Origin: an uncultured Akkermansia sp.
GTDB lineage: Bacteria; Verrucomicrobiota; Verrucomicrobiia; Verrucomicrobiales; V1-33
Direction of reading: 5' to 3'
Length of the DNA: 64,000 nucleotides
Assembly (NCBI GenBank): GCA_964523105.1
Contig: CAZFZN010000003.1
Location: forward strand, 251,707 to 315,706
Numbering within the stretch: the first letter of the stretch is position 1; each line of letters begins with the position of its first letter. Of the stretch, positions 7,623 to 56,700 are shown one piece after another. The notes under the pieces are model-generated. The model did no database searches. It saw only the letters and a program-made list of their open reading frames with translations, and was not told the DNA's origin. The translations under genes were made by a program, and so were the position numbers.

Positions 7623-8636
7623 TCAGCGGACCACCTCGGGCTTCGGGAAAACCCAGCTTCCGTCGAGCACCTTGGCCTTGGGGCGATACATTCGGACCGT
7701 GTAGTTCCAGCCGGGCATGATGCGGAGATAATTGTCCGCCTTGGGATCTCCGCCAAAGTTCACCGTCACGCTGCCGTCGGCGCCGCGCTTGGCGGTAACG
7801 CTGTTGAGCGAGGCGGCGCTGGCCGGTGCCTCGTAAAAGCCGTCCTTGTTGTAGACGGTGATGGACCAGAAGGCGTCCACCGGCACGTCCTTGACCTTGA
7901 GGCGCATGGCGGTCTCGCCGTCGTTTTGTTTGGGGACTTCGATCAGATAGAGCGCGTCTTTTTCGGCGTTGCCGAAAATGCCGCCGGCGGTGCCGATGAA
8001 ATGGCGCACGTCGTCCGTCTCCTCCTTTTTGCCGAAGGTCCGGCGGCTGTCGGGCATCCAGGGAGTCATGGTCAAGATGGCCTTGCGCAGGTTCGTTAGG
8101 CTCTCCTGATCCCAGTTCAGCACCTCGAAACTGCCGGGGCTGGCCTGGATCACTTTGATCGCGTCCTGGGCCTTGCGCATCTCCTCGATATCGGCCGGGC
8201 TGTTCGGATCCACGAGGGTGCGGAAGGTGACCTGGACATAGCGGGTCCCCATTTCCTCACGGGTGAAGGTGTAGGTGCCGGGCTCATAGATGGCGCGCTG
8301 GATGTAATGATCCTGGTTGATCACCAGCATGGATTGGAAGCGGCCGCCGATCTCGGGTTTGACGATGGTGAGCGGTTGGGTCAGGTCGAACACGCCGGTG
8401 CTATAGGGTGTGTCGCGGTTCATGCGGATCACGATTTGCTTGTCCACATCGACCGGACCGCGCTCATGGTGGAACTTACCGAAGGCTCCTTGCTCGAAGC
8501 GCTGTTTGAAGTAGCGATCGGTCTCGGCACGCACAAAGGTATCGACAGTGACAGGAATCGTCTCGGTCGCTGCGAGCATGCTGGTGGCCAGCAGGCAGAT
8601 GGCGGGAACAAGGGCTTTGAAGATCTGTTTCTTCAT
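7623..8636 (-). CDS. secreted DUF1254/DUF1214 domain protein
   Basis: ATG at 8636 with a signal peptide. NRDTPYSTGVFDL..GGRFQSMLVINQDHY is DUF1254-like and AFWSITVYNKDGFY is DUF1214-like (recalled motifs). Confidence 0.8.
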   Translation of the reverse strand: MKKQIFKALVPAICLLATSMLAATETIPVTVDTFVRAETDRYFKQRFEQGAFGKFHHERGPVDVDKQIVIRMNRDTPYSTGVFDLTQPLTIVKPEIGGRFQSMLVINQDHYIQRAIYEPGTYTFTREEMGTRYVQVTFRTLVDPNSPADIEEMRKAQDAIKVIQASPGSFEVLNWDQESLTNLRKAILTMTPWMPDSRRTFGKKEETDDVRHFIGTAGGIFGNAEKDALYLIEVPKQNDGETAMRLKVKDVPVDAFWSITVYNKDGFYEAPASAASLNSVTAKRGADGSVTVNFGGDPKADNYLRIMPGWNYTVRMYRPKAKVLDGSWVFPKPEVVR

Positions 8637-8693: not shown

Positions 8694-9599
8694 TCATGGC
8701 GTTGCAGGTTTGACCGCATCGGAGGGCGTGTGCAGAATGAACTCCACGATCAGTCGTTTGATATCATCACCGCGTTCGTTCAGCATGTTGTGGCCGCAGT
8801 TGGGAAGTGCGACCAGCCAGGCCTTTGGTCTGGCCTTGGCGATCATCAAGGCGCTTTCCGGCACTGCCACGAGGTCCTGCAAGCCGGTGAGAATCAGCAT
8901 GGGCGCGGTCCCGCCCAACCGCCACTGATCCTTCGGCGTGGCATCACTGGCTTTCGCTTGCGCGGCCGCCAGCTCGGGGAACTCACCTTGTGCCTGGTCC
9001 AGCTTGGCCAGTTCTTCGTTGCCCGGAGCATACATGAGTTCTCCCTGCAATTTCAGCCACTCTTCCTTGCTGGTCGAAGGGTCGAGGTAACGTTTGTATT
9101 TCTCCATGGTTTCCTTCGCCGGCAGGACCTCTCCGCCGGCACCGATCAGGATGACCCCCAGAACGCGCTCGGGATGATCCTGCGAAGCGGTTCGGACCAC
9201 CCGGTTTCCATAGGTCTTGCCGGCGAGGAACACCTTCTGCAACCCGAGGCCATCCGCGACTCTCCACACGTCATCCGCCCAGTCGTGCAGCGTCAGGTTG
9301 TCGATCCTGCCGGTGCTGGCACCCAGGGTGCGGTAGTTGTAGGTCACCACCTTGATTCCGTTCGCTGAAATGGCCTTGGCCAGAGCATCGAGTTGCGCCG
9401 CCGGACGACCATTGCCGGCCGCCATGATCAAGCTCACGGGGCCATCACCGAAAACAAAAGCCTCCAGTTGGAAGCCATCCGCTTGGATGATCTTTGCAAC
9501 GCCGCCGTTCTTATCCGCCTGGGCATGGCTCGAAGCCGCCGCGAAAAAACAAACCACAGGTAATAACCACAGGGTTCTGAATTGAGTCGGTGTTTTCAT
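8694..9599 (-). CDS. secreted alpha/beta-fold hydrolase with Thr at the nucleophile-elbow position
   Basis: ATG at 9599 with a signal peptide. The elbow reads FLAGKTYGN (G-x-T-x-G rather than G-x-S-x-G; the Thr codon is at 9213-9215). The acid and His candidates are TGLQDLV and NCGHNML. Confidence 0.7.
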   Translation of the reverse strand: MKTPTQFRTLWLLPVVCFFAAASSHAQADKNGGVAKIIQADGFQLEAFVFGDGPVSLIMAAGNGRPAAQLDALAKAISANGIKVVTYNYRTLGASTGRIDNLTLHDWADDVWRVADGLGLQKVFLAGKTYGNRVVRTASQDHPERVLGVILIGAGGEVLPAKETMEKYKRYLDPSTSKEEWLKLQGELMYAPGNEELAKLDQAQGEFPELAAAQAKASDATPKDQWRLGGTAPMLILTGLQDLVAVPESALMIAKARPKAWLVALPNCGHNMLNERGDDIKRLIVEFILHTPSDAVKPATP

Positions 9600-9758: not shown

Positions 9759-10808
9759 TCAGAACGGGGCGCGCTCCGCTTTTTGGAAGCGCTCGGTCAC
9801 GTCGCCGGAAAGGGCGATGTTGTCGGGATCGAGCGTCATCACCGGGGCGCCGGGTTTGAGATCGAACTTCGTGAGGTCGGCCCACAGGACGTTGGGGCTG
9901 GTGGTCAGCTCGAAGAAGTAGCGGCGGGTGTTGAGGTTGATGGCGGTGCGGTATTCGGTGTTGTAGATGCCGAAGTCCTTGTAGGGCGCGCCGAAGGGAA
10001 CGGAGATGTTGCGGGCGATGGCGAGGAGGCCGGCGATGGCCTCGCGCTCGGACTTGGGTTCGGGCAGCATCGAGGTGAAGTAGGCGGCGCGCTGGAAGCG
10101 GTCCTTGGCATTGACGTTGCCGGGCAGCTTCGTGTCGCTGCTGGGCTTGGAGAAGTCGTGCTCTTTCAGAAGCGCGAGCTGCTCGTCGTAGGTCGGGTCG
10201 TTGGTCATGAGTCGGTATTCCTTGCCGTGATGCACCACTGCCTTGCCGCCGATGTATTCGATGATGGCGGAGTCGCCCGAGGCATCCTCGATGGCGAGGT
10301 GGACAGTGGCTTTGTGGCCGTTGGCCGACATCATCACGATCTGGACCTTGTCGAGCAGGGCCAGTGCCTCCTTCACGTCGGCGGCCTGATCGAGCAGGTA
10401 CTGGAGCCAGAGTCCGGCTTGCACGCCGGGCTTGCTGGCGTCGCGCGGTCCGAAATCGGTGGCCCTCAGATAGAGCATGTGGCCCGCGAGGCCTTTTTCG
10501 TTCACGCCATCGGCGGTGCCGACGCCGTAAACGGAGGTAATGAGGCTGCCGTATTTGGAAGTCCACTTGGCGGGGTTTTCCTTGTCCACCTCCACGGGGC
10601 CGGCCATGCCGCCGTTCCTTTCCATGCCGGCGGGCAGGATGGTGAGGATGGGCATGGTGGACTCCGGCCAGTCCATGGTGCGGCCGGCGATGACGGCGAG
10701 CTGGTTGTTGTTCCACAGGATGCGGCTGCAAGCATCGGCGGCGGGGCTGATCGCGGCGACCAGGGTGGCTGCGGTGAAGATGGCGAGGTGTTGTTTTGTT
10801 GGTTTCAT
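9759..10808 (-). CDS. secreted choloylglycine-hydrolase-family linear amide C-N hydrolase, copy 2
   Basis: The ORF-track frame extends to 11063, but the Pro/Thr-rich extension overlaps the upstream gene. ATG at 10808 gives MKPTKQHLAIFTAATLVAAISPAADA/CSRILWN, a signal peptide followed by the nucleophile Cys. It shares KWTSKYGS, GVNEKGL, GDSAIIEY and MTNDPTYD with copy 1. Confidence 0.85.
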   Translation of the reverse strand: MKPTKQHLAIFTAATLVAAISPAADACSRILWNNNQLAVIAGRTMDWPESTMPILTILPAGMERNGGMAGPVEVDKENPAKWTSKYGSLITSVYGVGTADGVNEKGLAGHMLYLRATDFGPRDASKPGVQAGLWLQYLLDQAADVKEALALLDKVQIVMMSANGHKATVHLAIEDASGDSAIIEYIGGKAVVHHGKEYRLMTNDPTYDEQLALLKEHDFSKPSSDTKLPGNVNAKDRFQRAAYFTSMLPEPKSEREAIAGLLAIARNISVPFGAPYKDFGIYNTEYRTAINLNTRRYFFELTTSPNVLWADLTKFDLKPGAPVMTLDPDNIALSGDVTERFQKAERAPF

Positions 10809-27000: not shown

Positions 27001-28919
27001 GGCAGGATGCCGTCGTTGCCGAACAAGTCCGCCGGGTCCGCGACGATGGACATCGTCGGCAGGGAGCGGAGTGCCGCGATCATCGCGGGGCGGTTCGCGT
27101 TCACGATGACCGGCTTCATTTCGTAGTCTGCCGGCACCGGCACGCCGGCCGTGCTGCCGTTGGTGCCGGTGAAGACACCCCACGTCGCCGGAAAGCCCGG
27201 CGGATTCGCGGGCTGGTCGATGGATGTCGCCGGAAAAAGATAGGTCTGCGTGTCCACTCCGGTGCTGACCCAGCCGGGGCGGAACGCGATGGCACGCAGC
27301 ACGGTGGTCTTGTTGATCGCCACCGCCGCCGACGGCGTCTGGCCCGCGGCCGGCGTGACCACGGTCCCGTTCGCAGGCGTGGGCTCGGTGCCATTGGTCG
27401 TGTAGGAAATCGAGGCGTCCGGCGTCAGGCTCGTGATGTTCACCGTGATCGGCGCATCGAAGAAACCGCGGTCGATGTCGAATTTCGTGTCCTCCACGAA
27501 TCCGGCCAGGGCCGCGCCGTTGGGCGCTCCTGGCGTGGCCGGCACGAAAAATCCTGGCAGGCCGGTGCCCTCGTCAGTGCCCCAGGAAGCATCCGTCTGC
27601 TGCGGAGGAACGTTAGTGAATTCCGAGACCACCGTGGTGCCGTCCGGCGCCAGCAGCTGCAGCGTTTCGCCGCCGGCGGACAGCTGAAACGTGGTGTGCA
27701 GAAACCCGCCGGCGTCCGTGTAGTTCGCCGCTGCCTGACCCGACGCAAATACGACGAGCCGTGCGTTGCCCGCCAGTGGCACCGCCGGAAAGATCCAGGT
27801 CGTGGTGCTGTCCCGCAGTCCATAGCCGTCGAGCGCGATGCCGAACGCATTCGGATTCCAAATCTCGATCCAGTCGGAGGCATTGCCGTCGCCGTCGTTC
27901 AGCGCCGCGCTGTTCGACGCCATGAATTCCGTGAGGCGCGGCGGGAGCACGGTTTCGTTCACCCCCACCGTTACCTGAGCCGTCACGGAACCGGCGCCGT
28001 TCGCCGCCGTCAATGTGTAGGTTGTCGTGACTCCGGGGCTAACGTTTACGCTGCCGGTCGCACCGCTGATGGCCGGTGCGCCGTGGTTGATTGCGAGGCT
28101 GTCCGCGCGCGAAGTGTTCCATGAGAGCGCCGTGCTTTGCCCGGAAGTGATGTTTCCGGGCAGTGCGGTGAAGGAATTGATCTTCGGCAACTGCACCACG
28201 CCGCCGGCGTCGCGCAGGGCCTTCACTTCCACGGCCGTCAGCACGGTGTCGTAGAGAAAGACATTGTCGATCGCCCCGTCCCACGGCTCGGAATTGATGT
28301 CAGGCCGGATGGCGCCAATGGCGAAGGTATTCCAGCCCGCGCCAAACGCGCCCGCCGCCGTCACCGACACCAGCGGGTCCGCCACTGTGGCGGCGTCGAG
28401 ATCCACATACATTGTCACCTGCTTTGCCGGCTGATCATAACTCGCGGCAATGAACGACCACTGCGAAGTGCTCACCGGCCCTGGCGTGCCGGTGATCAGA
28501 CCGTTGGCGTTCACAGCATCATTTCCGATGAAGGTGGCGTAGCGGAAGGTTCCGCCCGGGTTGCGGTTGTCCAGTCCCAGCGTGCGGTCCCAGCTGCCGT
28601 TGTCGTGGCCGAGCACCTTATAGAGATTGCTCGTCAGAGTGTCTGTCCGCACCCACGCGCCCCATGTCATGCGCGGCAGCGCAGTCGGATTGATGTCCAC
28701 CGGGACGATGAGCCGGTCCCCGGAGAAATCGTAGGCGCCGCTGCCGTTGAAGCCGGTCGTCGCTCCCCACACCGGATTGGTGCCGGCATTCCCGCTGATG
28801 TTGTTGCCATGGCCGCTGGCGTCCAGATAGGGATTGGCAGCATTGTCGAAGTCGAAGTAGGCGATCAGTTCAGCCCGGGCGGCGACGAGCAGGAGGTGGA
28901 GAAGCAGTATGATGCGCAT
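24063..28919 (-). CDS. giant secreted CotH-kinase-family protein with N-terminal LamG module, lamin-tail (LTD) domains and chitobiase/FN3-associated-like domains
   Basis: I moved the start to ATG 28919 (MRIILLLHLLLVAARA, a signal peptide). The LamG module at about 28200-28870 is paralogous to those in 20620..24003. The CotH-like core reads KKSLRLTFNKQYGPGKLNFPLF..INLRATFSD..YLRDPFMRE..VHLYLNGLYWGIYNPTERPDD. An LTD-like segment reads LVISKIHYNP..FEFIELMN. YTTNGTEPT and YYTTDGSDP segments are present. Confidence 0.8.
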   Translation of the reverse strand: MRIILLLHLLLVAARAELIAYFDFDNAANPYLDASGHGNNISGNAGTNPVWGATTGFNGSGAYDFSGDRLIVPVDINPTALPRMTWGAWVRTDTLTSNLYKVLGHDNGSWDRTLGLDNRNPGGTFRYATFIGNDAVNANGLITGTPGPVSTSQWSFIAASYDQPAKQVTMYVDLDAATVADPLVSVTAAGAFGAGWNTFAIGAIRPDINSEPWDGAIDNVFLYDTVLTAVEVKALRDAGGVVQLPKINSFTALPGNITSGQSTALSWNTSRADSLAINHGAPAISGATGSVNVSPGVTTTYTLTAANGAGSVTAQVTVGVNETVLPPRLTEFMASNSAALNDGDGNASDWIEIWNPNAFGIALDGYGLRDSTTTWIFPAVPLAGNARLVVFASGQAAANYTDAGGFLHTTFQLSAGGETLQLLAPDGTTVVSEFTNVPPQQTDASWGTDEGTGLPGFFVPATPGAPNGAALAGFVEDTKFDIDRGFFDAPITVNITSLTPDASISYTTNGTEPTPANGTVVTPAAGQTPSAAVAINKTTVLRAIAFRPGWVSTGVDTQTYLFPATSIDQPANPPGFPATWGVFTGTNGSTAGVPVPADYEMKPVIVNANRPAMIAALRSLPTMSIVADPADLFGNDGILPNPFGDVNGIGVFTQSPFNPDRKCSMEWIQPDGAREVQIECAVRLIGGWSRHYEATPKKSLRLTFNKQYGPGKLNFPLFGEGEISEFDRINLRATFSDAWVDNAHPAQYLRDPFMRETYLAMGQPASRGTFVHLYLNGLYWGIYNPTERPDDDYASSHYGGRDEDYDALKHQSLTGPASAPTNSYEMVSGTSDRWQQALAISAQDMTNPVAYGNLRQYVDMTCLADYVIANSFLSNLDWPGKNWYAFGRRDGADGGFKFVPWDSEYTLLDLNANRLGVSATVTPTRFYDRAKLNAEFRLLFADRVHKHCFNGGPLTSATMIARYSAMAAHIEPAIDAEAARWGDNPNTRQGVRDFRKSHWIAARDTILNSYMPNRPAIALAQFRAANLYPATDAPEFTQHGGVIDPPLINFTNSPAGTVYYTTDGSDPRLPGGAVNPAATGLAGGSVTESYFALEAPGWRYFTTPSGLGDSEIVSGHPAYSLTNWKHEDFDDTAWGTGQAMLGYGSITNRTMRTTVGFGGDPLNRYPTTYFRKTFTVADATRVSKLLIDVIRDDGAILYINGREAGRTNMAGGNQTYASFASGGASPEDAVTRIEYVPPAGVLRNGVNVLAVELHQETAGSSDLGIDVALQAQISNSGITLTQSGTVKARTRSAGGEWSALTEAFFIVAAEPATAANLVISKIHYNPAGPSPVEVSAGFADPRMFEFIELMNYGTRSISLAGLEIVDGISFTFAPDDVAELAPGQRGVVVNNAAAFAARYGAGVKVFGQFAAGNLNNDGESIALVNAAGADLWRFTYNDAGAWPKSPDGFGPALALINPSAPPDNAGMSLPENWRPSAAGGGQPGADDRTTLASWLAAQANPDPLADPDKDGISQMLAFATGARTLPSAAFLPSVTLESFTTGGAAELYTVMAVRELIGASGLTARIESSGDMQSWSPAGVELVSVTDHGDGTMTRRWRSLTSTAPGRTFLRLYVTQTP

Positions 28920-28925
28920 AGGGGA

Positions 28926-28957
28926 TTTTGGCAGAATAATGGGGGCAGAATGATGAT
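28926..28957 (-). repeat. start-proximal leader element, copy 1 (reads ATCATCATTCTGCCCCCATTATTCTGCCAAAA on the minus strand, then TCCCCT-ATG of 24063..28919)
   Basis: Read directly from the sequence. It forms an imperfect inverted repeat with copy 2 about a centre near 28967. Confidence 0.8.
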
Positions 28958-28977
28958 TTGAGAAGACTTCTTCGCTT

Positions 28978-29003
28978 ATCATTTTGCCCCCATTATTTTG
29001 CCC
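28978..29003 (+). repeat. start-proximal leader element, copy 2 (ATCATTTTGCCCCCATTATTTTGCCC, then ATCCCCTGCC-ATG of 29014..29802)
   Basis: Read directly from the sequence. Confidence 0.8.
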
Positions 29004-29013
29004 ATCCCCTGCC

Positions 29014-29802
29014 ATGCCAATCATCCTGCACACCCCCGTTCGCGTGCTCAATCAGCAGGAGTTCCACGAACTGAACCATCAGGTGCTCGGCGTCATCTTC
29101 CAGGTCCACAGCGAGTATGGCAGGCTCGCCGACGAAGCCGTCGTCAAGTCCGCCATCGCCGCTGAATGGAACCGCACGGGAATCGCCGCCCGCGATATTC
29201 CCATCCGCCTGACCCACGGCAGTTACTCCAAAACCCTCTACATGGACCTGCTCTTCGAGTCCTCGCTGATGATCGAAGCCAAAACCGCCGACCGGCTCAG
29301 CGGCTCGCACCGCGCGCAGGCACTCAACTATCTTTTCCTCACCGGAATGCACCACGGCACGCTGGTCAACCTGCGCACCCCGCGCGTGGAGCATGAGTTC
29401 GTCTCCACGCACATCAGCCCGGAGGCACGCCGCGTCATCCAGGTCCGCAAATTCCACCGGCCTGAGGACGCGGACTCCGCGCGCCTCCTCACCTGTGCGG
29501 AATCCCTGCTCCGCGACTGGGGCTCGTATCTGGAAGTCTCCCTCTACCGTGACGCCATCGCTCATCTGCTGCAACTCGGCGAATCCTCGCCCGTATCTGT
29601 TTTTCATGATGGCCAGCGCATCGGGCATCAGCCCATGCTGCTGCTCAACGAAACCACCGTCCTCGCCTGCACCGCGCTCACCAGCGGCCACGAAGACCTG
29701 TCGAGCCATCTCCAGCGACTCCTCTCCCACACCCAACTCACCTCGCTGCGCTGGCTGAACTTCAACCACACCACCCTGGAACTTCGCGCCCTCCCCGCCT
29801 AA
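29014..29802 (+). CDS. GxxExxY-like PD-(D/E)XK nuclease-fold protein with ~130-aa C-terminal extension
   Basis: ATG at 29014 (the ORF-track start at 28984 is a TTG inside the repeat). YMDLLFESSLMIEAKTADRLSGSHRAQALNYLFLTGMHHGTLVNL matches the D..(V)E.K...aQ.lnYLk.tg...GlLiNF core of GxxExxY proteins as recalled. The name-giving motif is degenerate (LADEAVV). Confidence 0.65.
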   Translation: MPIILHTPVRVLNQQEFHELNHQVLGVIFQVHSEYGRLADEAVVKSAIAAEWNRTGIAARDIPIRLTHGSYSKTLYMDLLFESSLMIEAKTADRLSGSHRAQALNYLFLTGMHHGTLVNLRTPRVEHEFVSTHISPEARRVIQVRKFHRPEDADSARLLTCAESLLRDWGSYLEVSLYRDAIAHLLQLGESSPVSVFHDGQRIGHQPMLLLNETTVLACTALTSGHEDLSSHLQRLLSHTQLTSLRWLNFNHTTLELRALPA

Positions 29803-35722: not shown

Positions 35723-36340
35723 GCAATGAGGAATTTTTCACTGCGGAGGCAAATTCGAGCGGAGTCCGGCTGCGGAAGGCCATGGCCGGCCCGCGCCGCC
35801 GGAGGCTGACGCGGGTACAGAAGGAGGCGCGTCGCGTGATGCCGCTGCGCCACCGGCCACGGCATGGCTCCCGCAAGTGCTGCCGGGAGATGCCGCCGCA
35901 GACGCCGCCCCGGCCAGTGGCGCACTTCACGGCAACCCCTCCGGCATCGCGGCCGACTCGCCTGTCCTCCACTGCAGTTCCAAACCTGGCTGGCATAATC
36001 ATCCGACCGGCGATCGTTCCCCGGATTGCATGATCCAATGGATGTCAGTGCACGCAAGTTCCCCGGTAACGTAAAAACCCTGGTAACATGAAAACTGTTC
36101 CTCCACGGACGAAGAGGCGCGGAGCCGTCCCCGGCTCTCCAATGCCGCAGCCCGGCTCCGCTCCCCCGGCATTCGCCGCCGCCTCATGAGTGGGACGCGC
36201 ACAGCGCATCCCTACCGCTTAATTTTTGGCGCTGCGCGCTCTTGGATCGGGCATCGTGCTGGAAGATTGGAATTTCAGAATCGCGGTGATACGATCCGGC
36301 CCGGATTATCGCATAAAGAGCCAGCAGCAAACCGCCGCCC

Positions 36341-39300
36341 ATGAACCCCGAAGAGCAAATCTTCGAAGCCGCCACCGCCCTGCCGGCCGCGGACCGCCCG
36401 GCTTATCTCGACCAGGCCTGCGCCGGGCAGCCGGAACTGCGCGCCCGCATCGAGGCCCTGCTGCGGTCGCACGAGGTCACGGGCTTCATGGAACATCCCA
36501 CCGTCGTGCCGCCCGGCCCGCCCACCGAGCAGCCCGGCGATCTCATCGGACGCTACAAGCTGATGGAGAAGATCGGCGAGGGCGGGTTCGGCGTCGTCTG
36601 GGTGGCCGAACAGCAGGAGCCCGTGCGCCGGCGCGTCGCGCTCAAGATCATCAAGCCCGGCATGGACAGCCGCGAGGTCATCGCGCGCTTCGAACAGGAA
36701 CGTCAGGCGCTCGCCATGATGGACCATCCCAATATCGCCAAGGTCTTCGATGCCGGCGCCACCGACAAAGGCCGGCCGTTCTTCGTCATGGAACTCGTCC
36801 GCGGCGTCAGGATCACCGACTACTGCGATCAAGCCAGCCTCCCGACCGCGGAACGGCTCAGCCTCTTCATCAATGTCTGTCAGGCCGTGCAGCACGCGCA
36901 CCAGAAAGGCATCATCCACCGCGACCTTAAGCCGTCCAACATTCTCGTCACGCCCGGCGACGACGGTGAGCCCCATAGCAAGGCCGTCCCGGCCTTGAAT
37001 GAATGCAACAGGCCGGGACGGCCTGACTACGCTGCTCCGCCTGTCGTCAAAGTCATCGATTTCGGCGTCGCCAAAGCCATCCAGCAACAGCCGCTGACCG
37101 ATGGCACGGCCTATACGCAGTTCGAACAGATGATCGGCACCCCCGCCTACATGTCGCCGGAACAGGCTGGCCTTGGCCCGATGGACATTGATACCCGCAG
37201 CGACGTCTATTCCCTCGGCGTCCTGCTCTACGAACTGCTCACCGGCCGCCCGCCGTTCGATTCCAAAGAACTCCTCCGCGCCGGTATGGACGAAATGCGC
37301 CGCGTCATCCGCGAAGTCGAACCGCCCCGGCCCAGCACGCGCAGAACGCAAATGGCCGCGGCTTCAATCGCGGGACACCACCCTGCCAAATCTAAAATCC
37401 TAATTCCTAAATCTAAAATCCCCGCCGACCTCGACTGGATCGTGATGAAGGCCCTGGAGAAAGACCGCGCCCGCCGCTACGAAAGCGCCGCCGGCCTCGT
37501 CGCCGACCTCCGCCGGCACATGGAGAGCCTGCCCGTTCTCGCCCGCCCGCCCGGTCGCGCCTATTTGCTGTCGCGGTTCATCCGCAGGCACAAAATCGGA
37601 GTGGCGGCGGGCCTCGCAGTGTCGCTGTCTCTCTTCGCGGGCCTCGGCGCGGTTTTATGGGGAAAGAAGCAGGCGGAGGAGGAAGCCAAGAGGACAAGAC
37701 TTGCGAATGAGGCCAACGAACGAAACCTTCATCTCGCCAGCATGGCCGACTACGCCGCTGCGGTGAAGGCGCTGGACGAAGACCTCGAAGCCACGCGCAA
37801 AGGCCAGCGAGCCCTCGGATTCAAGGGCAAGTCCCGCTGGCACGAAGGCGTAGCGCTTCTCGTTCGCGCCCTGGAGCGTGAACCTGGAAATCGCCAAGCC
37901 GCGCTCGAACTTTACGATACGCTTCGCAGACGCCAAGGCGCCAAGCGGGACTGGGCACTTCATATTTTGAAACAAGAGGGGCCTGTGAGGACGGCGAGTT
38001 TCAGTCCGGATGGCACGAGGATATTCACGGTGAGTAACGAGGGAACCGCGCGCCTTTGGGACACTGACACCGGCCAGCCCATCGGCGAGCCGTTACCCAT
38101 CGGCAAACCGATGCCACAACATGGCAGAGTGAATGCCGACGGTTTCAGCCCGGATGGCACCAGAATAGTAACGGTAAGTGATGATGGCTCTGCGCGCCTT
38201 TGGGACGCGGCGACCGCTGAACCCGTAGGCGAACCGATGCGCCACAAGAACATAGTGGATCCTCCCAGATTCAGCTTTGACGGCTCCCGGCTAGTCACGA
38301 CAGAGCTTAATGATGAATTCGCGCGAGTGTGGAATTCGGCAGACGGCCGACTCGTTGGCGAGCCAATGAGGCATCCGGGCATCGTAGAAACCGCGAGTTT
38401 TAGCCCGGATGGAACTCTGATATTGACTACCTGCACGGATGGCACCGTGCGCCTTTGGGACGCGGAGAGCAGCAAACAAATCGGCCACCCGATGCGGCAC
38501 AGGGAGAGATTAAGTTCCGCAACATTCAGTCCGGATGGTTCCATAATCCTCAGTGTCGAGAGGTCGGGCAACGCTCGGATTTGGGAGGTAGCATCCGGAC
38601 GTGAGATCAGACAACTCACGCGACCGGATGGACTCTTACAGGAAACCAGAGCAACTTTTTCGCCAGATGGAACAAAGATTCTTGCCATCCACAAGCCGGA
38701 CTATGCGGGACCGACAAGGGGTGTGAGAACTACGGATGTAGCGCGGATTTGGGATGTGGCAACGGGCATTCAATTAGGCGCAGATATTCCTGAGATTTAT
38801 GGCAGGTGGGATGGGGGCGGGAGCTTCGAGTTCTGCCCTGATGGCACCATGGTCGTCACTGCGACGGGCGTTGACATGACGACCCGTGTATGGGACGCGG
38901 CAACTGGCGATCCCATAGGTCAGCCGATCCGCCATAACGACTCGCCTAACACAGCGCTATTCAGTGCAAACTTTAGTCCGGACGCTACGTTGATCGTGAC
39001 CGGCGGTGATTATGAGAATGCGCGGTTGTGGGAAGCGAGGAGCGGATGGCCTATTTCTTTGCCGCTGCGCCATGAAAATAGAGTGTGGGACATTATGTTT
39101 AGCCCGGATGGGACTAAGATTATCACCATCGGTGATGAAGTAAAGATATGGGAAGTGCCCTCGACCACGCGCGCGTGGGACGATGCATTCATAGAATATG
39201 GAGGATATGGTAGGATGGCTGACTGGGCGAGTGAGCGTGCATTCGCTCGTGCGATGACCCCAACCGAGTCAGCTGCCATTGTTCCCATTACACCGGCGAT

Positions 39301-39943
39301 CTTAGACTGGGCACGCAGTTTCTCAGGACTGAGTTTCGATGAGGAGGGACAACTTCATCTCATTTCCGATGTGGAGCGCCTTTCTTTTATGGCTGCGATC
39401 TCTTTGCCCGACGGCCCTTGGGCCGATCTCATCAAATGGATCAACATCCCATCCCGCCAACGCTCCATAGATCCTAAATTAAGTGTCACTTTCAGGCAAA
39501 TCGCCGAGCGCTATCGCGACAAGTATGGGACCGATGGTGCGGAGAATGGCAACCTATCGAACCTCGAACACTCGCTAGCATTGGATTCTACGGTGCCGCT
39601 CACTCGGCTCCTGCTCGCTGCGGCATTAGAGAAGCGAGATGGCGCTAAAAAAACTGGAAACCGGGATCCGCACATTCCCCAGCGCGCCGCCTTCCTGCGC
39701 CGTTATGATCTTGATGCGCTAGATCGGCAGAAGGGTAAATTGAAGGATGCGGAGTTGGCAGCGCTCTGGGCACGGGCAGCCGCGCATTTGTTCAAGCTGC
39801 CGCCGGAGACGAAGGTGGGAATCGGACCGAAGACCACCACGGCGCGCGAAGAAGCGGAGAAAGCGGCGCGGAAGGCCTTGGAGTTGGTGTCCGGTCTTCC
39901 GGAGGCGGAGGAAGTGCTCAAGAAAATAGAAGAGTCGAAATGA
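36341..39943 (+). CDS. Ser/Thr protein kinase - TM - WD40 repeat protein (1200 aa)
   Basis: ATG at 36341. The kinase motifs are GEGGFGVVW, VALKIIK, HRDLKPSN, DFGVAKA and GTPAYMSPE. A TM segment (IGVAAGLAVSLSLFAGLGAVLW) follows, then about nine SFSPDGT..(A/V)R(L/I)WD WD40-type repeats and a helical C-terminus. Confidence 0.9.
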   Translation: MNPEEQIFEAATALPAADRPAYLDQACAGQPELRARIEALLRSHEVTGFMEHPTVVPPGPPTEQPGDLIGRYKLMEKIGEGGFGVVWVAEQQEPVRRRVALKIIKPGMDSREVIARFEQERQALAMMDHPNIAKVFDAGATDKGRPFFVMELVRGVRITDYCDQASLPTAERLSLFINVCQAVQHAHQKGIIHRDLKPSNILVTPGDDGEPHSKAVPALNECNRPGRPDYAAPPVVKVIDFGVAKAIQQQPLTDGTAYTQFEQMIGTPAYMSPEQAGLGPMDIDTRSDVYSLGVLLYELLTGRPPFDSKELLRAGMDEMRRVIREVEPPRPSTRRTQMAAASIAGHHPAKSKILIPKSKIPADLDWIVMKALEKDRARRYESAAGLVADLRRHMESLPVLARPPGRAYLLSRFIRRHKIGVAAGLAVSLSLFAGLGAVLWGKKQAEEEAKRTRLANEANERNLHLASMADYAAAVKALDEDLEATRKGQRALGFKGKSRWHEGVALLVRALEREPGNRQAALELYDTLRRRQGAKRDWALHILKQEGPVRTASFSPDGTRIFTVSNEGTARLWDTDTGQPIGEPLPIGKPMPQHGRVNADGFSPDGTRIVTVSDDGSARLWDAATAEPVGEPMRHKNIVDPPRFSFDGSRLVTTELNDEFARVWNSADGRLVGEPMRHPGIVETASFSPDGTLILTTCTDGTVRLWDAESSKQIGHPMRHRERLSSATFSPDGSIILSVERSGNARIWEVASGREIRQLTRPDGLLQETRATFSPDGTKILAIHKPDYAGPTRGVRTTDVARIWDVATGIQLGADIPEIYGRWDGGGSFEFCPDGTMVVTATGVDMTTRVWDAATGDPIGQPIRHNDSPNTALFSANFSPDATLIVTGGDYENARLWEARSGWPISLPLRHENRVWDIMFSPDGTKIITIGDEVKIWEVPSTTRAWDDAFIEYGGYGRMADWASERAFARAMTPTESAAIVPITPAILDWARSFSGLSFDEEGQLHLISDVERLSFMAAISLPDGPWADLIKWINIPSRQRSIDPKLSVTFRQIAERYRDKYGTDGAENGNLSNLEHSLALDSTVPLTRLLLAAALEKRDGAKKTGNRDPHIPQRAAFLRRYDLDALDRQKGKLKDAELAALWARAAAHLFKLPPETKVGIGPKTTTAREEAEKAARKALELVSGLPEAEEVLKKIEESK
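36981..37024. repeat. perfect 15-bp inverted repeat (aggccgtcccggcct / aggccgggacggcct) with 14-nt spacer, inside the kinase CDS
   Basis: Read directly from the sequence. The arms are 36981-36995 and 37010-37024. A further tag/cta pairing at 36976-78 and 37027-29 extends the structure. Confidence 0.9.
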
Positions 39944-40349
39944 CGGCGGCCATCCATTCTGCGCATCGAAGTCATGTAGTCCGGATCCGTGAAGATGCCG
40001 GCTGATGAAACTGGGAGGGGAGCACAGGCGCCCCGCCTGTCGTGAGCGGCGCCCCCGCCGTTCACTTAAAGCCAACGGCGCAGCCGCACTTCTGAGACGG
40101 GACCTTTCCTGCGCACCTTTGAGTGTGCGGCTTTGCCGGGATGGTTTAAAGTTCCCCGCGGGGCGCGGGGAACGACAGGCGAGGGCACCTGTGCCCCCCG
40201 ATTTCCTCTCACCTGGCGACTTGAATGATTCGCACCGCCGGTCCCTAACGCCTCCGATACTTCCTGCGCTGCTGCCGGAGTTGCGCGAGGCGGCGGTAAT
40301 TCACCCGCTGCCCCGTTGCATTGCCCGGCGGCGCGGTAGCCTCGCGGGC

Positions 40350-40955
40350 ATGATTACCTTTCTCCGCGGACGCCTTGTGACCAGTTTGCCGGACCGCGCC
40401 TGTCTCGATGTGGGCGGGGTGGGCTATGAGGTTTGGGTGCCGCTGAGCACTTATGACCGGCTGGGGGAAACGGGGCGCGAGGTCACGGTGCTGACGCACT
40501 TTCATGTGCGCGAGGACCAGCAGGCGCTCTACGGATTCGCCACCGACGAGGAGCGCGATCTTTTCCGGCTGCTCATCAATCGTGTCACTGGCGTGGGGCC
40601 GAAGATGGGTCTCGCGATTCTCAGCGGTATGAGCGTGCGCGATTTCAAACGCCACGTGGTTCAGGGCGACATCGCGGCGCTCTCGAAGATCAGCGGTGTG
40701 GGGAAAAAGACGGCGGAGCGGATCATTCTCGAGTTGAAGGACAAGGTCGGCGTCACCGAAGCCTGGAAGGACAGCGGGCCGGCGGTCCTGACGCCGCAGC
40801 AGGCGGTGGCGAACGACGTGGTGCTGGCGCTGATCAATCTCGGCTATCGTCAGGCCGAAGCGCAGAAGGCGGTGAAGCGAGTGCTCGACGACGGCGCGGC
40901 GCCGGAGCAGGGTACGCTGGTCCGCGCGGCGCTGCGGCTGCTGAGTCAGGCGTGA
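40350..40955 (+). CDS. ruvA: Holliday junction branch migration protein RuvA
   Basis: I moved the start to ATG 40350 (MITFLRGRL...). The motifs are GVGYEV.VPLST, LYGF....ER.LF..LI.V.GVGPK.AL.ILS and ISGVGKKTAERIILELKDK. Confidence 0.9.
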   Translation: MITFLRGRLVTSLPDRACLDVGGVGYEVWVPLSTYDRLGETGREVTVLTHFHVREDQQALYGFATDEERDLFRLLINRVTGVGPKMGLAILSGMSVRDFKRHVVQGDIAALSKISGVGKKTAERIILELKDKVGVTEAWKDSGPAVLTPQQAVANDVVLALINLGYRQAEAQKAVKRVLDDGAAPEQGTLVRAALRLLSQA

Positions 40956-40984
40956 GTCGGGGACGCTTTGCGTTCTGTAGATTC

Positions 40985-41022
40985 GGTAGGGACGTGCTGT
41001 GCACGTCCGATTATTGTGGGGG
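40985..41022. repeat. REP-like palindromic element, copy 1 (ggtaGGGACGTGCtgtGCACGTCCgattattgtggggg)
   Basis: The 8-bp stem is 40990-40997 / 41001-41008 with a 3-nt loop. It lies in the convergent intergenic region between ruvA and the sulfatase. Confidence 0.7.
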
Positions 41023-41092
41023 TGGAGAACACCGGGGGCACAAAGTGTGGCGCTGGTTCGGGAACGGCTCCGCACCTCCTCCGCCCACGGAA

Positions 41093-41132
41093 GAGTGGGA
41101 CGTGCGCAGCACGTCCCTACCATTATTATGGG
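41093..41132. repeat. REP-like palindromic element, copy 2 (gagtGGGACGTGCgcaGCACGTCCCtaccattattatggg)
   Basis: The 9-bp stem is 41097-41105 / 41109-41117 with a 3-nt loop. It has the same ATTATT(G/A)TGGG tail as copy 1. Confidence 0.7.
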
Positions 41133-41141
41133 CCGGGCAAA

Positions 41142-42470
41142 TCACTTCTTCGCCGGTCCCATGCCGGTGGGGTCGCTGCGCGGGGCGATGGCGGCTTTGG
41201 GGAACTCCTCCAGCTTCGCGGTCAGTTCCTTGAGTTTCTCCGGTTCCTTGTCGGCGAGGTTGGTCTGCTCGCCGGGATCCGCGGCGAGGTTGAACAGTTC
41301 GGTATTCGCTTCACCACCGCCGTTTCTTCTCCCGCCGGCGTAGTGGCGCACCAGTTTCCAGTCGCCGAGCCGGAGCGCGCTGGAGACCGGGTCGTGATGA
41401 ATGAGAATGGCGGCGTGCGGAGATTTGGCGCCGCTGGTGAGGACGGGAAGAATGTCGCGTCCGTCGAGCGGGCGCTTCTGGTGTTCGGCGTCGAGAGGAA
41501 TGCCGGCGAGTCCGGCCACGGTGGGGAACCAGTCAACGGCGTGCAGCGGCTCGCTGATCTTCGAGCCGGGCTTGATGCGGTCCTGCCATGACACGCAGGC
41601 AGCGACGCGGTGACCGCCTTCGTAGGGCGTGCCCTTCTTTCCGCGCAGGGTGCCGTTCTTCGCAGGACCGACGCCGCCGTTGTCGCTGCTGAAAACGATG
41701 AGCGTATTCTTGCGCCGCCCGCTTTCGTCGAGCGCCGCCAGGATTTGGCCGATGGCGGTGTCCATTTCACTGAGCATGGTGGCATACTGTCGTCGGCCCT
41801 TGGGCATGTCCGCGAAATCATTCTCCCGCCCCGGCGCGACATGATAGGGCGAATGCACGGCATTGAACGGCACGTAGAGGAAGAGCGGTTTGTCCTCCGG
41901 CTGCTCCTTCAGAATGCGGCAGGCTTCTTTGGCGAGCAGATGTGTAGCGTAGCCTTCGTCCTTGCTGGGCTGGTCATTGCGGTACCAGTCGAGCTTGCCG
42001 TCGCGCAGGTGGGTGGTGTAATTGAGCGCGCCGAAGAAGTGGCCGTATTGCATGTCGAATCCGCGCCGCGTCGGCAGGTAAGCGGGATCGAACTCACCGA
42101 GGTGCCACTTGCCGGTGATGGCGGTGGTGTAGCCGGCTTCGCGCAGGGCCAGGGAAAGCGTGCGCTCCGCCAGGGGCAGCCCGTATTTCTCGCCGGGCCG
42201 GATCACGCCCTGCTGCAGGCCATAACGGATCGGATAGCGACCGGTGAGCAGCGCGGCGCGTGTCGGTGAGCAGACGTGCTGCACGTAGTAGCTGGTGAGC
42301 ACGGCGCCGCTGGCTGCGAGTTTGTCGAGATGGGGTGTGGGAATGTCCTTGCCGCCATTGAAGCCGGTGTCCGCGTAGCCGAGATCGTCGGCGAGGATGT
42401 AGAGGAAGTCGGGCTTTTCCGCGGCGGACGTTAAACCGCAAAGAAGCAGGAGAGCGCAGAGGATTTTCAT
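41142..42470 (-). CDS. arylsulfatase (formylglycine-dependent sulfatase family)
   Basis: I moved the start to ATG 42470 (MKILCALLLLCGLTSAAE, a signal peptide). The motifs are DDLGYAD, CSPTRAALLTGR (the FGly motif) and GKWHLG. Confidence 0.9.
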   Translation of the reverse strand: MKILCALLLLCGLTSAAEKPDFLYILADDLGYADTGFNGGKDIPTPHLDKLAASGAVLTSYYVQHVCSPTRAALLTGRYPIRYGLQQGVIRPGEKYGLPLAERTLSLALREAGYTTAITGKWHLGEFDPAYLPTRRGFDMQYGHFFGALNYTTHLRDGKLDWYRNDQPSKDEGYATHLLAKEACRILKEQPEDKPLFLYVPFNAVHSPYHVAPGRENDFADMPKGRRQYATMLSEMDTAIGQILAALDESGRRKNTLIVFSSDNGGVGPAKNGTLRGKKGTPYEGGHRVAACVSWQDRIKPGSKISEPLHAVDWFPTVAGLAGIPLDAEHQKRPLDGRDILPVLTSGAKSPHAAILIHHDPVSSALRLGDWKLVRHYAGGRRNGGGEANTELFNLAADPGEQTNLADKEPEKLKELTAKLEEFPKAAIAPRSDPTGMGPAKK

Positions 42471-53781: not shown

Positions 53782-56700
53782 ATGGCGACAGCGGATGACA
53801 CGACTGCGATGCGCTTCGGAAATTACGAAGTGCTGACAAGGCCCGACGGCAAACCAGATGAACTGGGACGCGGCGGGTTTGGACGCACGTACCGGGCGCG
53901 GCACATCTTTCTCGGCACCGAGGTGGCGCTCAAGGTGATCATCGACCGGCTTGCGTTCGACGAGACGGCGAAGAAGCGGTTTCTCAAAGAGGCGCGCGAG
54001 GCGGCGCGGCTCAATCACCCGGGCATCGCCCGCATCACTGACTTCGGCGAGGAGGAGGGCACGTTTTTCTACGCGATGGATCTGTGCCGCGACGGCGATC
54101 TGAAGGAATACGTGCGCCGCCGCGGGCCGCTGCCGCCGGCGGAGGCGCTGGAACTGATTCGCCAGACGGCGGAGGCGCTGAGCTATGCGCACGGTCACGG
54201 CATTCTGCACCGCGACATCAAGCCGTCGAATCTGCTCATCGTGATGGACAGCGGCACGCCGCAGGTGAAATTGATAGACTTCGGACTGGTGCGCCGCATT
54301 GCCCACAACGCGGACGAGACGATGGAGGCGGCCTCGCCTTCGCAGTGGTCGCCGGTCTTTGCCAGCCCGGAGCAGATTCGCGAACTGCCGCTGGACGAGC
54401 GCACGGATATTTTCTCGCTGGGCATGACCGCGTGGTATTTGCTGCGGGGCAGCGGGCCGGTGGACGGCAGCACGCATGAAATCGTGGCCGAGCGGCTCGG
54501 TTCCGAAAGCTATGAATCCCGGCTGCCCGCCTCGCTCCAGGGCGTGACGCGCCGCGTCGTGGCCCGCATGGTGGAGAAGGCCGCGGACCGCCGCTATCGC
54601 CAGTGTTCCGAACTGCTCGACGACCTGCGGCACGCCCTGAGCGGCACCCCGGCGGAGCCGCCGCGCGGCGTGCAGAGCATGGCGGAGCGGTTCGTGCTGC
54701 AGCCGGCGGGGCGCGAGTACGCCGGCGAGGTTTTTCGCGGTCACGAAACGACCACAGGCCGGCCCGTGCGCGTCACCCGGGTGCACCGGGAGCATGAGCC
54801 GGAAACTCTCGCGGCGGCGGCCGAAAAAGTCAGGGCGCTCGCGGCGGCCGGAGCGCCGGGCCTCATTCCTCTGCTCGAAATGTCGGAGTTCTCCGACGGC
54901 ATGGCCATTATCGAGGAGGAAGTGTCAGGCCGGAGTGTGGAGGAAACCCTGCGCCGTGAAGGTGCGGTGCCGCTGGCGAAGCTGGCGACGATCCTGTGGG
55001 ATGCGGCGACTGGAGTGGACACGGCCGTGAAGTGCGGCGCCGTGCCGGGCACGCTGGATCAGGCCATGTTCACCGGGGTGGACCGCAGTCCGGTGGACTG
55101 GAATGCGGCGCAGATTTTTTTCCCCGTGAAAGTGATCGCGGATACTGCGGACTGGGTGCGGGAGGCGGACGTGACCGCTGCGCCCGTGCCGGCTTCGCCG
55201 CTGAAGTCGTTCGCCAGCCTCGTCTATCTCGGCGTGGGCGGCCGGCATGTCAGGCCCCAGGCGCTGCATTCCTCCTCCGCCTGTATTCCGATCCCTGGAC
55301 TCAGCGCGGGCGGGAATCGCCTCCTGGCCGGTGCTTTGTCAGGAGAATCACAGCCGGAGAACTGCCTCGCGCTGCTGCAGTCGCTGCTCGCTGCGGAGGC
55401 GGTGCCGGCCGAGAGTGTGGCGCGGCGATCGCGCGAGCGTCAGCACCGGATTGCGGTGGACCGCTCCGCCACCGCGGAGCGTGCCGCCCGCACCACCACC
55501 GGCACCCGCACTGCGACCGCCGCCGCGCGCACCGCCACCGCCGCGCGCACTGCCACGGCCCCTCCGCCTCTGCCGCCGGAGGCGCCGCCAGCCACTGGCA
55601 TTACCGAAACGGTGCGCATGGAGTTTCTCGGCCGCATCGAGGCCAGCGCGCGCCAGGCGAAGGAGCATGCCAACGAAACACTCCGCGTGAAGCTGCCGCC
55701 CGGACGCGATGATGCAGAACTCTGCCAGTTTCAAATCGAGGCGCGCAAATGGGCCCGGGAAGCCGCTTCCGTGCACCAGCACGCGCAGGAAATGACGGCG
55801 GCGGGAACTCTCCATGCCGCCGCGGTGAAAGACCTGACCGATTCCGCCGCCGCCGCGGCCGCGGAAGTGGCGCGCCTGCTCGCCATGGCGCGCGGTCTCG
55901 CCGCGGATGTCCATGTGCCGGTCGAGGAAACCCAGTACGAGCCGCTGTCGGCCACGGTGCCGGTGCCGCCATCGGTTCCGCTGATGGATGCGCCCGCGCC
56001 GCTGCCGCAACCCGCGCCGCCGGGCGGAGTGCCTTTCCCGCGGCACGAAATGCCGCCCCAGCCTCCTCCTCCGGAGATTCACGCCGCCTCTGCGCCGCCT
56101 GAACTGCGGCCGGTCCGCCATGAGCCGGCGCCACCGGCTCCGGTTCCCCTGACACCGCTCCCCACCGTTCCGAAAAAGGGGAATCCCATGGTGGCGGCTT
56201 CCATCGTCCTCCTGCTCTGCGCCCTCGGCGCCGGCGGATGGTATTATTACGAGTTCCACTGGAAAAAGAAATCCGGCGCCACCGTCGTGGCGGACAACAC
56301 CCCGCCCCGGGAAAACGGCAAAGGCAACGGCCCCGACAAAGAACCGGTGAAGGACCCTGTCAAAGATCCGGTCAAGGATCCCGTGAAGGATCCCGTCAGC
56401 ATTTCCACTCCGCCTCCGCCGCCTCCGCCGTCGAAGCGCGAAGTGGTCGTCATGTTCACCGGTGACCTGCCGGAGAGTGACGACGTCTCCTTTCGCGGGG
56501 TGAAGAACAAGCCGCCGATGACGAAGTCCGGCGGCGGTGCGGTCTTCGCATTCGAACTCGAGCCCGGTGCGCCGGACCCCGAGCCCATTGTCAACGGCGA
56601 GCGGTTTTCCAGCACGCTGGTGAGCCGTGAGTCCGACCGCATCACCTACAAACTCAAGCGCCAGCTGCCGCCCAACAAGCTGCGCCTCCTTGGCATCGAG

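Follow-up and report, generated by a model that had tools for sequence, protein, structure and literature searches.

REP doublets forming hairpins (REPINs), each built of two repetitive extragenic palindromic (REP) units, are non-autonomous mobile elements that are thought to be moved by a chromosomal REP-associated tyrosine transposase (RAYT; HUH/Y1, IS200/IS605 type) acting on single-stranded DNA hairpins. Di Nocera, De Gregorio and Rocco (2013, BMC Genomics 14:522; PMC3733652) defined the GTAG and CGTC superfamilies of REPs. A unit of the GTAG type has a stem of 5–13 bp and a loop of 2–20 nt (Table 1 of PMC3733652), and intragenic members are an accepted minority of the GTAG families (PMC3733652). 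The verrucomicrobium Opitutus terrae possesses the most intragenic GTAG REPs, and its in-frame dimers encode 20–30 residues (PMC3733652). Here, we analyze a 64,000-nt (64-kb) stretch of DNA from an uncultured Akkermansia sp. (contig CAZFZN010000003.1 of assembly GCA_964523105.1; hereafter, the window), in which the gene for a Hanks-type Ser/Thr kinase carries a palindromic insert within its catalytic core. This insert is very probably a REPIN, with two GTAG-tagged REP units joined head to head, that inserted in frame. The original prediction on this DNA had described an element resembling a REP or a miniature inverted-repeat transposable element that landed in frame without breaking the open reading frame (ORF); the GTAG dimer, the intact ORF and the empty site in a syntenic ortholog, all described below, bear this out.

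The perfect 15-bp inverted repeat was found exactly where it had been predicted. AGGCCGTCCCGGCCT (36981-36995) is the perfect reverse complement of positions 37010-37024, with 14 nt between the arms, and the flanking pairing extends the repeat imperfectly to 28-nt arms (36968-36995 and 37010-37037, 82% complementary). The RNA fold of the 86-nt region reaches -49.3 kcal/mol (z = -6.75; none of 200 shuffles was as stable), and a perfect 15-bp inverted repeat with a 3–50-nt loop was seen in one of 300 first-order Markov simulations of the window. On these statistics, a chance palindrome was rejected.

The anatomy of the palindrome is that of two REP units (Table 1). The left unit has a stem of 8 bp and the right unit a stem of 7 bp (CAGGCCG/CGGCCTG), each closed by the loop TCC, and both sizes are within the limits of GTAG units. 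The units are inverted, with the tags outside, and can be folded into one long hairpin. The right unit has the GTAG tag, which reads CTAC at 37027-37030 on the plus strand; the left tag is ATAG in the window and GTAG in the orthologous copy from the relative L244. The CGTC terminal tag of Rickettsia palindromic elements and CGTC REPs was not found, the tags being GTAG/ATAG and CTAC. Nor is the location extragenic, the insert lying inside a Pfam-supported ORF. The left unit matches the family consensus GTAGCAAGGCCGTCCCGGCCTTG at 22 of 23 nt, a score attained by none of 100 shuffles, and the left unit of L244 is identical to the consensus over 26/26 nt, TGAAT included.

Table 1. Coordinates of the kinase gene, its insert and a neighboring REPIN in the window
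Feature	Position	Strand	Evidence
Hanks-type Ser/Thr kinase gene, 1200 aa	36341..39943	+	ORF list; Pfam Pkinase and WD40; invariant catalytic residues
In-frame insert, 69 nt / 23 codons, roughly HSKAVPALNECNRPGRPDYAAPP	~36974..37042, ends uncertain by a few nt	+	Codon alignment with L245/L244; breaks of PDB alignments; homolog lengths
Left REP unit: tag ATAG (36975-78), stem CAAGGCCG (36979-86), loop TCC (36987-89), stem CGGCCTTG (36990-97)	36975..36997	+	Coordinate check; consensus match
Perfect 15-bp inverted repeat, the cores of both REP units	36981..37024	.	Repeat search; GTAG-hairpin scan
Spacer AATGAATGCAA, 11 nt, loop of the large hairpin	36998..37008	.	Fold and coordinate check
Right REP unit, inverted: GTAG-T-CAGGCCG-TCC-CGGCCTG on the minus strand	37009..37030	-	GTAG-hairpin scan; coordinate check
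Second REPIN, of a different family: two inverted GTAG-GGACGTGC-NNN-GCACGTCC units (GTAGGGACGTGC-NNN-GCACGTCC), 43-nt arms	40985..41121	.	Hairpin scan; DNA fold

The host protein consists of an N-terminal kinase domain, a transmembrane segment, WD40 repeats and a C-terminal domain. Pfam Pkinase (PF00069) matches residues 72-379 with E = 5.4e-43, the WD40 repeats follow it, and the PknB, PknA and StkP structures match the protein at E = 1e-34 to 1e-43. The G-loop, the catalytic Lys and the HRD...N, DFG and P+1/APE motifs of Hanks kinases are all there. The HRDLKPSN-to-DFG distance is 39 residues in the window kinase versus 15–18 in the 119 scorable homologs, which come from the best 120 of 8000 kinase homologs with E <= 1e-20; the insert is missing from all 119 of them. 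Alignments to solved kinases are interrupted precisely by the insert, breaking at query residues 157 and 180, across which the residues of the solved chain are contiguous. The kinase homologs carry the labels Verrucomicrobiae or Opitutaceae and form a gene family with very many paralogs. An exact protein look-up found no copy of the 1200-aa kinase on record. A second Hanks-type kinase domain, a distant relative of the first with 28% identity, is encoded at 53815-54696.

The in-frame extra residues were thus rightly recognized in the original prediction, but their number, given there as about 25 (~75 nt), comes down to 23 codons or 69 nt, because the Glu-Pro stretch GAG CC (36968-36972) is host sequence, as comparison with the empty-site ortholog L245 shows. 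A first boundary model, based on the homolog L119, had placed the start at 36968 and counted the outer GAGC/GCTC pairing as part of the element; it was dropped on the evidence of L245. The 21-kb contig L119, the best word-index match, has no GTAG hairpins and no synteny with the window. The host flanks of the insert are complementary to each other (GACGAC at 36959-36964 and GTCGTC at 37043-37048), and before the insertion, this site may have folded into a small hairpin whose loop contained the insertion point; this may be a coincidence, and L119 lacks GTCGTC.

Copies of the palindrome elsewhere, for which the original prediction had proposed a search, proved to be numerous. The 21-nt unit RTAGNNAGGCCGTCCCGGCCT, searched in metagenome contigs with the first tag base left free as A or G, gave at least 166 matches at no fewer than 120 loci, and their flanks show that they lie outside the window kinase gene, in unrelated contexts. 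Among the metagenome matches listed, G occupies the first tag base in 148 of 151 unique copies, the linker after the tag is CA, CC or CG, and the unit is followed by T (72%) and G (79%), which lengthen the stem. Both the preference for G and the stem-extending bases indicate that these are homologous copies rather than chance hits. The listed matches also include dimers with spacers varying from 5 to 123 nt, and contigs with up to seven units each. The same heterodimer as in the kinase, a GTAGTC unit with an inverted GTAGCA unit, is present at one of these loci (L130), sharing blocks of 25/25 nt and 22/23 nt with the insert. A compact dimer of the same family, GTAGAAAGGCCGTCCCGGCCT and AGGCCGAGACGGCCTGACTAC separated by 10 nt, recurs in several samples (L228; also L122, L143 and L207), and in L228 it is followed after ~770 nt by a gene for a kinase that shares 64% identity with that of the window. 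No match to the REP unit was found in viral contigs.

A scan of the genome collection for the double core returned at least 118 loci, with families that are multi-copy in Isosphaeraceae, Gemmataceae and others. Most of the double-core genome matches listed are from families of Planctomycetes and Actinobacteria whose flanks are different, and GTAG...CTAC tags occur in 29 of the 120 elements among them. REP units were also seen in tandem arrays. In L194:6-578, seven copies follow one another with a 92-nt period. In L155, L197, L206, L211 and L224, the period is ~57–60 nt and AGGCCGTCCCGGCCT units alternate with inverted AGGGCGGGACGCCCT units, a pattern reminiscent of the E. coli mosaic REP clusters (BIMEs).

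The mobility of the element is supported by a site that is filled in some genomes and empty in others. Two relatives in which ruvA directly follows the kinase gene, as in the window, were identified by searching the protein representatives exhaustively. L245 (P0361, 1130 aa, kinase and WD40; L245:10001-13393) lacks the insert, its empty site reading ...GGC GAG CCG GTG CCC AAA GTC..., i.e., GDDGEPVPKVIDFG. L244 (P0449, 1040 aa; L244:10001-13123) carries the same dimer at the same codon, with an intact left GTAG tag: GAG CCA AGT AGC AAG GCC GTC CCG GCC TTG AAT GAA ACC AAC AGG CCA GGA CGG CCT GAC TAC GCT GCT CCA CCC GTC GTC AAA. Codon by codon, the site is filled in the window and L244 and empty in L245. 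Taken with the 119 homologs, L245 confirms that orthologs without the residues exist, which was one of the checks proposed in the original prediction. That prediction would have been contradicted if all orthologs carried a similar insert without a palindrome and no other copies of the palindrome existed; neither is the case.

The ruvA genes of the window and L244 are 94.9% identical in DNA, compared with 90.6% for the window and L245 and 89.9% for L244 and L245, so that the window and L244 are sisters. These sites would most simply be read as a single insertion in an ancestor shared by the window and L244 lineages, once L245 had branched off. Being common to two lineages whose ruvA genes differ by 5%, the element is not recent. 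A further dimer of the insert's family occurs in L244 at 9186-9259, 1.4 kb upstream of the kinase gene; it is mostly intergenic, with its degenerate right unit reaching into the first codons of the gene called downstream, and brings L244 to two dimers in 13.9 kb. Named RuvA relatives with 74–82% identity are labeled Verrucomicrobiales, Verrucomicrobiota or Verrucomicrobiaceae, which, with the labels of the kinase homologs, places the window in Verrucomicrobiota; the exact RuvA was matched only on a 3.9-kb Logan contig that ends short of the insert. Candidate orthologs reached through the ruvA genes of P0242, P0260 and P0247 were rejected: no kinase gene precedes ruvA there, and these loci have no REPs.

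In an AlphaFold2 model based on a 42-sequence alignment, the kinase fold is obtained with a predicted template modeling score (pTM) of 0.78, the strands 147-150 and 181-184 are kept, and most of the insert has a predicted local distance difference test score (pLDDT) below 50. The insert is thus predicted to be disordered, forming a loop in the turn that joins beta7 to beta8 and lies between the catalytic loop and DFG. A Pro/Arg-rich loop had been foreseen, and its surface exposure proposed as a check: the model places a low-confidence loop between two kept strands, and Pro, Ala and Arg abound among the 23 encoded residues. Only one of the three plus-strand frames, the one in use, crosses the insert without a stop, as expected if tolerated insertions are those that survive. 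The inserts of the window and L244 differ at 7 of the 75 nt compared, amounting to three synonymous changes and two nonsynonymous codons of 23 (H to S and C to T), and the insert appears to evolve as an ordinary coding sequence. One of the synonymous changes in L244, CCG to CCA, breaks a stem pair and nothing compensates for it, which argues against selection on the hairpin. The claim of a strong hairpin inside the coding sequence therefore stands for the RNA fold but gains no support for a role at the RNA level. Most likely, the effect of the insert on the kinase is neutral or mildly tolerated.

We next consider what else the insert could be. It could be an old, lineage-specific loop of the kinase whose palindrome arose by coincidence or by a local template-switch inverted duplication, with no mobile element involved. 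The slight variation in length of the homologs at this turn (15–18 residues) and the presence of the REP family only once within the window would agree with such an origin. The left unit, however, matches at 22/23 nt (26/26 in L244) a repeat found at 166 or more sites in unrelated contexts, the GTAG tags at those sites are left unexplained by a local duplication, the syntenic ortholog L245 has an empty site, and an inverted repeat of this kind would arise by chance in about 1 of 300 cases. The family, consensus and empty-site evidence effectively refutes this origin, and we regard it as extremely improbable. That the insertion inactivated the kinase, leaving a pseudokinase or a decaying pseudogene whose frame is still open, is very unlikely as well. 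The insert does lie near the ATP site, between the catalytic loop and DFG, and redundancy among the many paralogs could mask a loss of function. Yet the full 1200-codon ORF is uninterrupted despite the insert, every invariant column of the 42-sequence alignment is kept in the window protein (G-loop, Lys48, Glu66, HRD, Asn146, DFG and P+1/SPE), the GC content at third codon positions in the kinase domain is 0.80, as in a typical coding frame, the filled allele is open in two lineages, and the predicted fold is intact.

An exaptation of the REPIN-derived insert, either as a regulatory or docking loop beside the activation segment or as an mRNA hairpin modulating translation or decay of the kinase message, appears unlikely, albeit less so than the two explanations above. 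A benefit of the loop to the kinase may explain why the in-frame copy persisted through speciation: the frame was kept open in two lineages with ruvA genes ~5% apart, the insert is 91% identical between the window and L244 (68/75 nt), above the 83% and 77% of the kinase flanks, and the hairpin is very stable. These points are opposed by the uncompensated stem break in L244, the two codons of 23 with a changed amino acid, the lack of ordered structure in the predicted loop, and the functioning of L245 and all other scorable homologs without the insert. Moreover, no Rfam match was obtained (E-value mode, 36000-42000), and the occurrence of REP inserts in many unrelated proteins speaks against functional constraint, according to Di Nocera et al. 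(PMC3733652).

Several observations nevertheless count against a single in-frame gain of a tolerated GTAG REP dimer. The left tag in the window is ATAG instead of GTAG. The window holds only one copy of the insert's REP family and, by tblastn with 9 RAYT sequences, no RAYT gene, so that both the multi-copy status and the cognate transposase are known from relatives. The insertion ends fit no clean target-site model, with ...CCG GTG CCC AAA at the empty site and ...CCG CCT GTC GTC AAA at the end of the filled one. No clean direct duplication of the target, such as would mark an IS-derived MITE with terminal inverted repeats, is seen at the insert ends; CCN is present on both sides, but in the comparison of the window, L244 and L245 the other junction bases do not fit a simple target-site duplication model. 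The kinase gene is also a mosaic. Its 5' part, up to HRD, pairs L244 with L245 (90.7%, versus 83% to the window), contrary to ruvA, and precise excision in L245 or transfer by recombination may be alternatives to a single gain. Finally, it is from sequence and a structural model that we infer neutrality.

The 200 codons after DFG pair the window with L245 (89.5%, versus 77%), and the C-terminal region of L244 is unrelated. The change of relationship falls around the REPIN insertion site. Taken together, these identities suggest recombination among lineages or paralogs near the insertion site.

Returning to the insertion of a REPIN as the preferred explanation, we propose that the GTAG REP dimer entered the kinase gene in an ancestor shared by the window and L244 organisms. 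It probably survived there because its length of 69 nt is a multiple of three, because it landed in the only stop-free plus-strand frame, and because the beta7-beta8 turn is solvent-exposed, so that the fold and the catalytic residues would have been left untouched. The element would have been mobilized by a RAYT acting on single-stranded DNA hairpins. Such a transposase presumably operated in the source genome. Among other genomes, L080 has a Y1_Tnp/RAYT gene (Pfam, 31.2 bits against a cut-off of 23) with GGCCGTCCCGGCC-core REPIN units on both sides, and the RAYT of L071, which shares 44% identity with E. coli RayT, is 1.3 kb away from a GGCCGTCCCGGCC-core REPIN.

Downstream of the kinase gene, the REPIN at 40985-41121 (Table 1) is intergenic, lying between the ruvA stop (40955) and a convergent gene, with a DNA fold of z = -8.7; it was also found on the Logan contig L240 (run ERR15459717). 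Its presence implies that the source genome hosts GTAG REP dimers. A third palindromic element, at ~40016-40200, has inverted units with ACAGGCG-CCC-CGCCTGT (z = -6.6) and lies in the 406-nt spacer from the kinase stop (39943) to the ruvA start (40350). The corresponding spacer is 76 nt long in L244 and 211 nt in L245, where it has a different palindromic element, and this spacer looks like a hot spot for palindromic insertions. An AT-rich, near-perfect palindrome unrelated to the REP families was observed at 28930-29002 (36-nt arms, 81%, 1 nt apart), with the internal direct repeats GGCAGAATAATGG and GGCAGAATGATGA. By eye, it seems to be located between divergent start codons (CAT at 28917-28919 and ATG near 29014) and could be an operator.

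The distribution of the REP unit may reach beyond the Verrucomicrobia. Among the metagenome matches listed (L120-L239, e.g., L139, L150 and L172), an identical unit occurs in two compositional classes of contigs, with 36–47% and 60–67% GC. The one low-GC locus tested, L139, is Chlamydiae-like, with four units in 13 kb and a KdsA 73–74% identical to proteins named Waddliaceae or Parachlamydiaceae. Alongside the Planctomycetes families with the same core, L139 hints at a REP sequence shared by members of the Planctomycetes-Verrucomicrobia-Chlamydiae (PVC) superphylum. It is possible, if doubtful, that the unit GTAGCAAGGCCGTCCCGGCCT(TGAAT), of 21–26 nt, whose 13-nt core hairpin is present in RAYT-associated REPINs of Planctomycetes, is not lineage-specific and has either been frozen since the PVC radiation or belongs to a phylum-crossing REPIN-RAYT system. 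If true, both alternatives would contradict a strictly vertical, lineage-specific co-evolution of REPINs and RAYTs.

For the kinase itself, the locus indicates that a catalytic core can absorb a 23-residue mobile-palindrome insertion in the beta7-beta8 turn and keep its frame open through speciation. Having both a filled and an empty allele in nature provides fairly direct comparative evidence for the movement of REP dimers as complete units, and the two alleles could be used to test the effect on kinase activity as well as precise excision or insertion by RAYT. In genome annotation, REP inserts create lineage-specific "loops" that consist of repeat DNA and can break profile alignments, as they do here.

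Compared with the REPIN-RAYT systems of Pseudomonas and Enterobacteria (Nunvar 2010; Bertels & Rainey 2011, PMC3116915), the window element likewise combines two inverted REPs in one long hairpin and is non-autonomous. The similarity extends to the RAYT flanked by same-core REPINs in L080, the one nearby in L071, and the filled and empty sites that indicate mobility. In contrast to the window copy, which is coding, classical REPINs by definition lie outside genes, and they have been described as specific to a lineage and inherited vertically, whereas the window unit is common to organisms of very different GC content. The Rickettsia palindromic elements (RPEs), reportedly described by Ogata and colleagues in 2000, are said to be palindromic repeats lying in frame in coding genes, where they add surface segments and the protein is kept. 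They differ from the window insert in having no GTAG tag, in showing no sequence similarity to it and in belonging to another phylum. RPE-4 and RPE-6 fall into the CGTC-tagged superfamily, and RPE-1 is a longer palindromic insertion (PMC3733652).

The closest counterparts are the GTAG-17/18/19 dimers of O. terrae (PMC3733652), which share with the insert the phylum, the GTAG tag, a stem of 6–9 bp, a short loop and the head-to-head arrangement with tags outside. They too are in frame in genuine enzymes, where they encode 15–30 residues rich in Pro, Ala, Gly and Arg. In-frame copies with the same core or of the same family were likewise confirmed in genes for a UvrA-like protein (L144), RarA/MgsA (L055) and a carboxyltransferase (L095). 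The UvrA-like ORF of ~1900 aa contains two in-frame elements of the insert's REP family, a single unit (8170-8190), encoding SKAVPAL as in the window kinase, and a head-to-head dimer (10272-10341); these two elements mirror the doubly interrupted uvrA genes of O. terrae (PMC3733652). The O. terrae table even lists a Ser/Thr kinase, Oter_3506, with a REP at residues 625-640 of 848 (PMC3733652). The stems of the O. terrae units differ from CAAGGCCG-TCC-CGGCCTTG, and no O. terrae REP peptide resembles SKAVPAL or RPGRP. In Oter_3506, the REP would presumably lie outside the catalytic domain, if that domain is N-terminal as usual, whereas the window insert separates the catalytic loop from DFG. In-frame GTAG REP dimers have been known in Verrucomicrobia since 2013, and the present finding extends their catalogue (PMC3733652). 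What is unusual about this insert is its catalytic-core location, and both this position and the REP family itself, whose peptides match no O. terrae entry, appear to be new.

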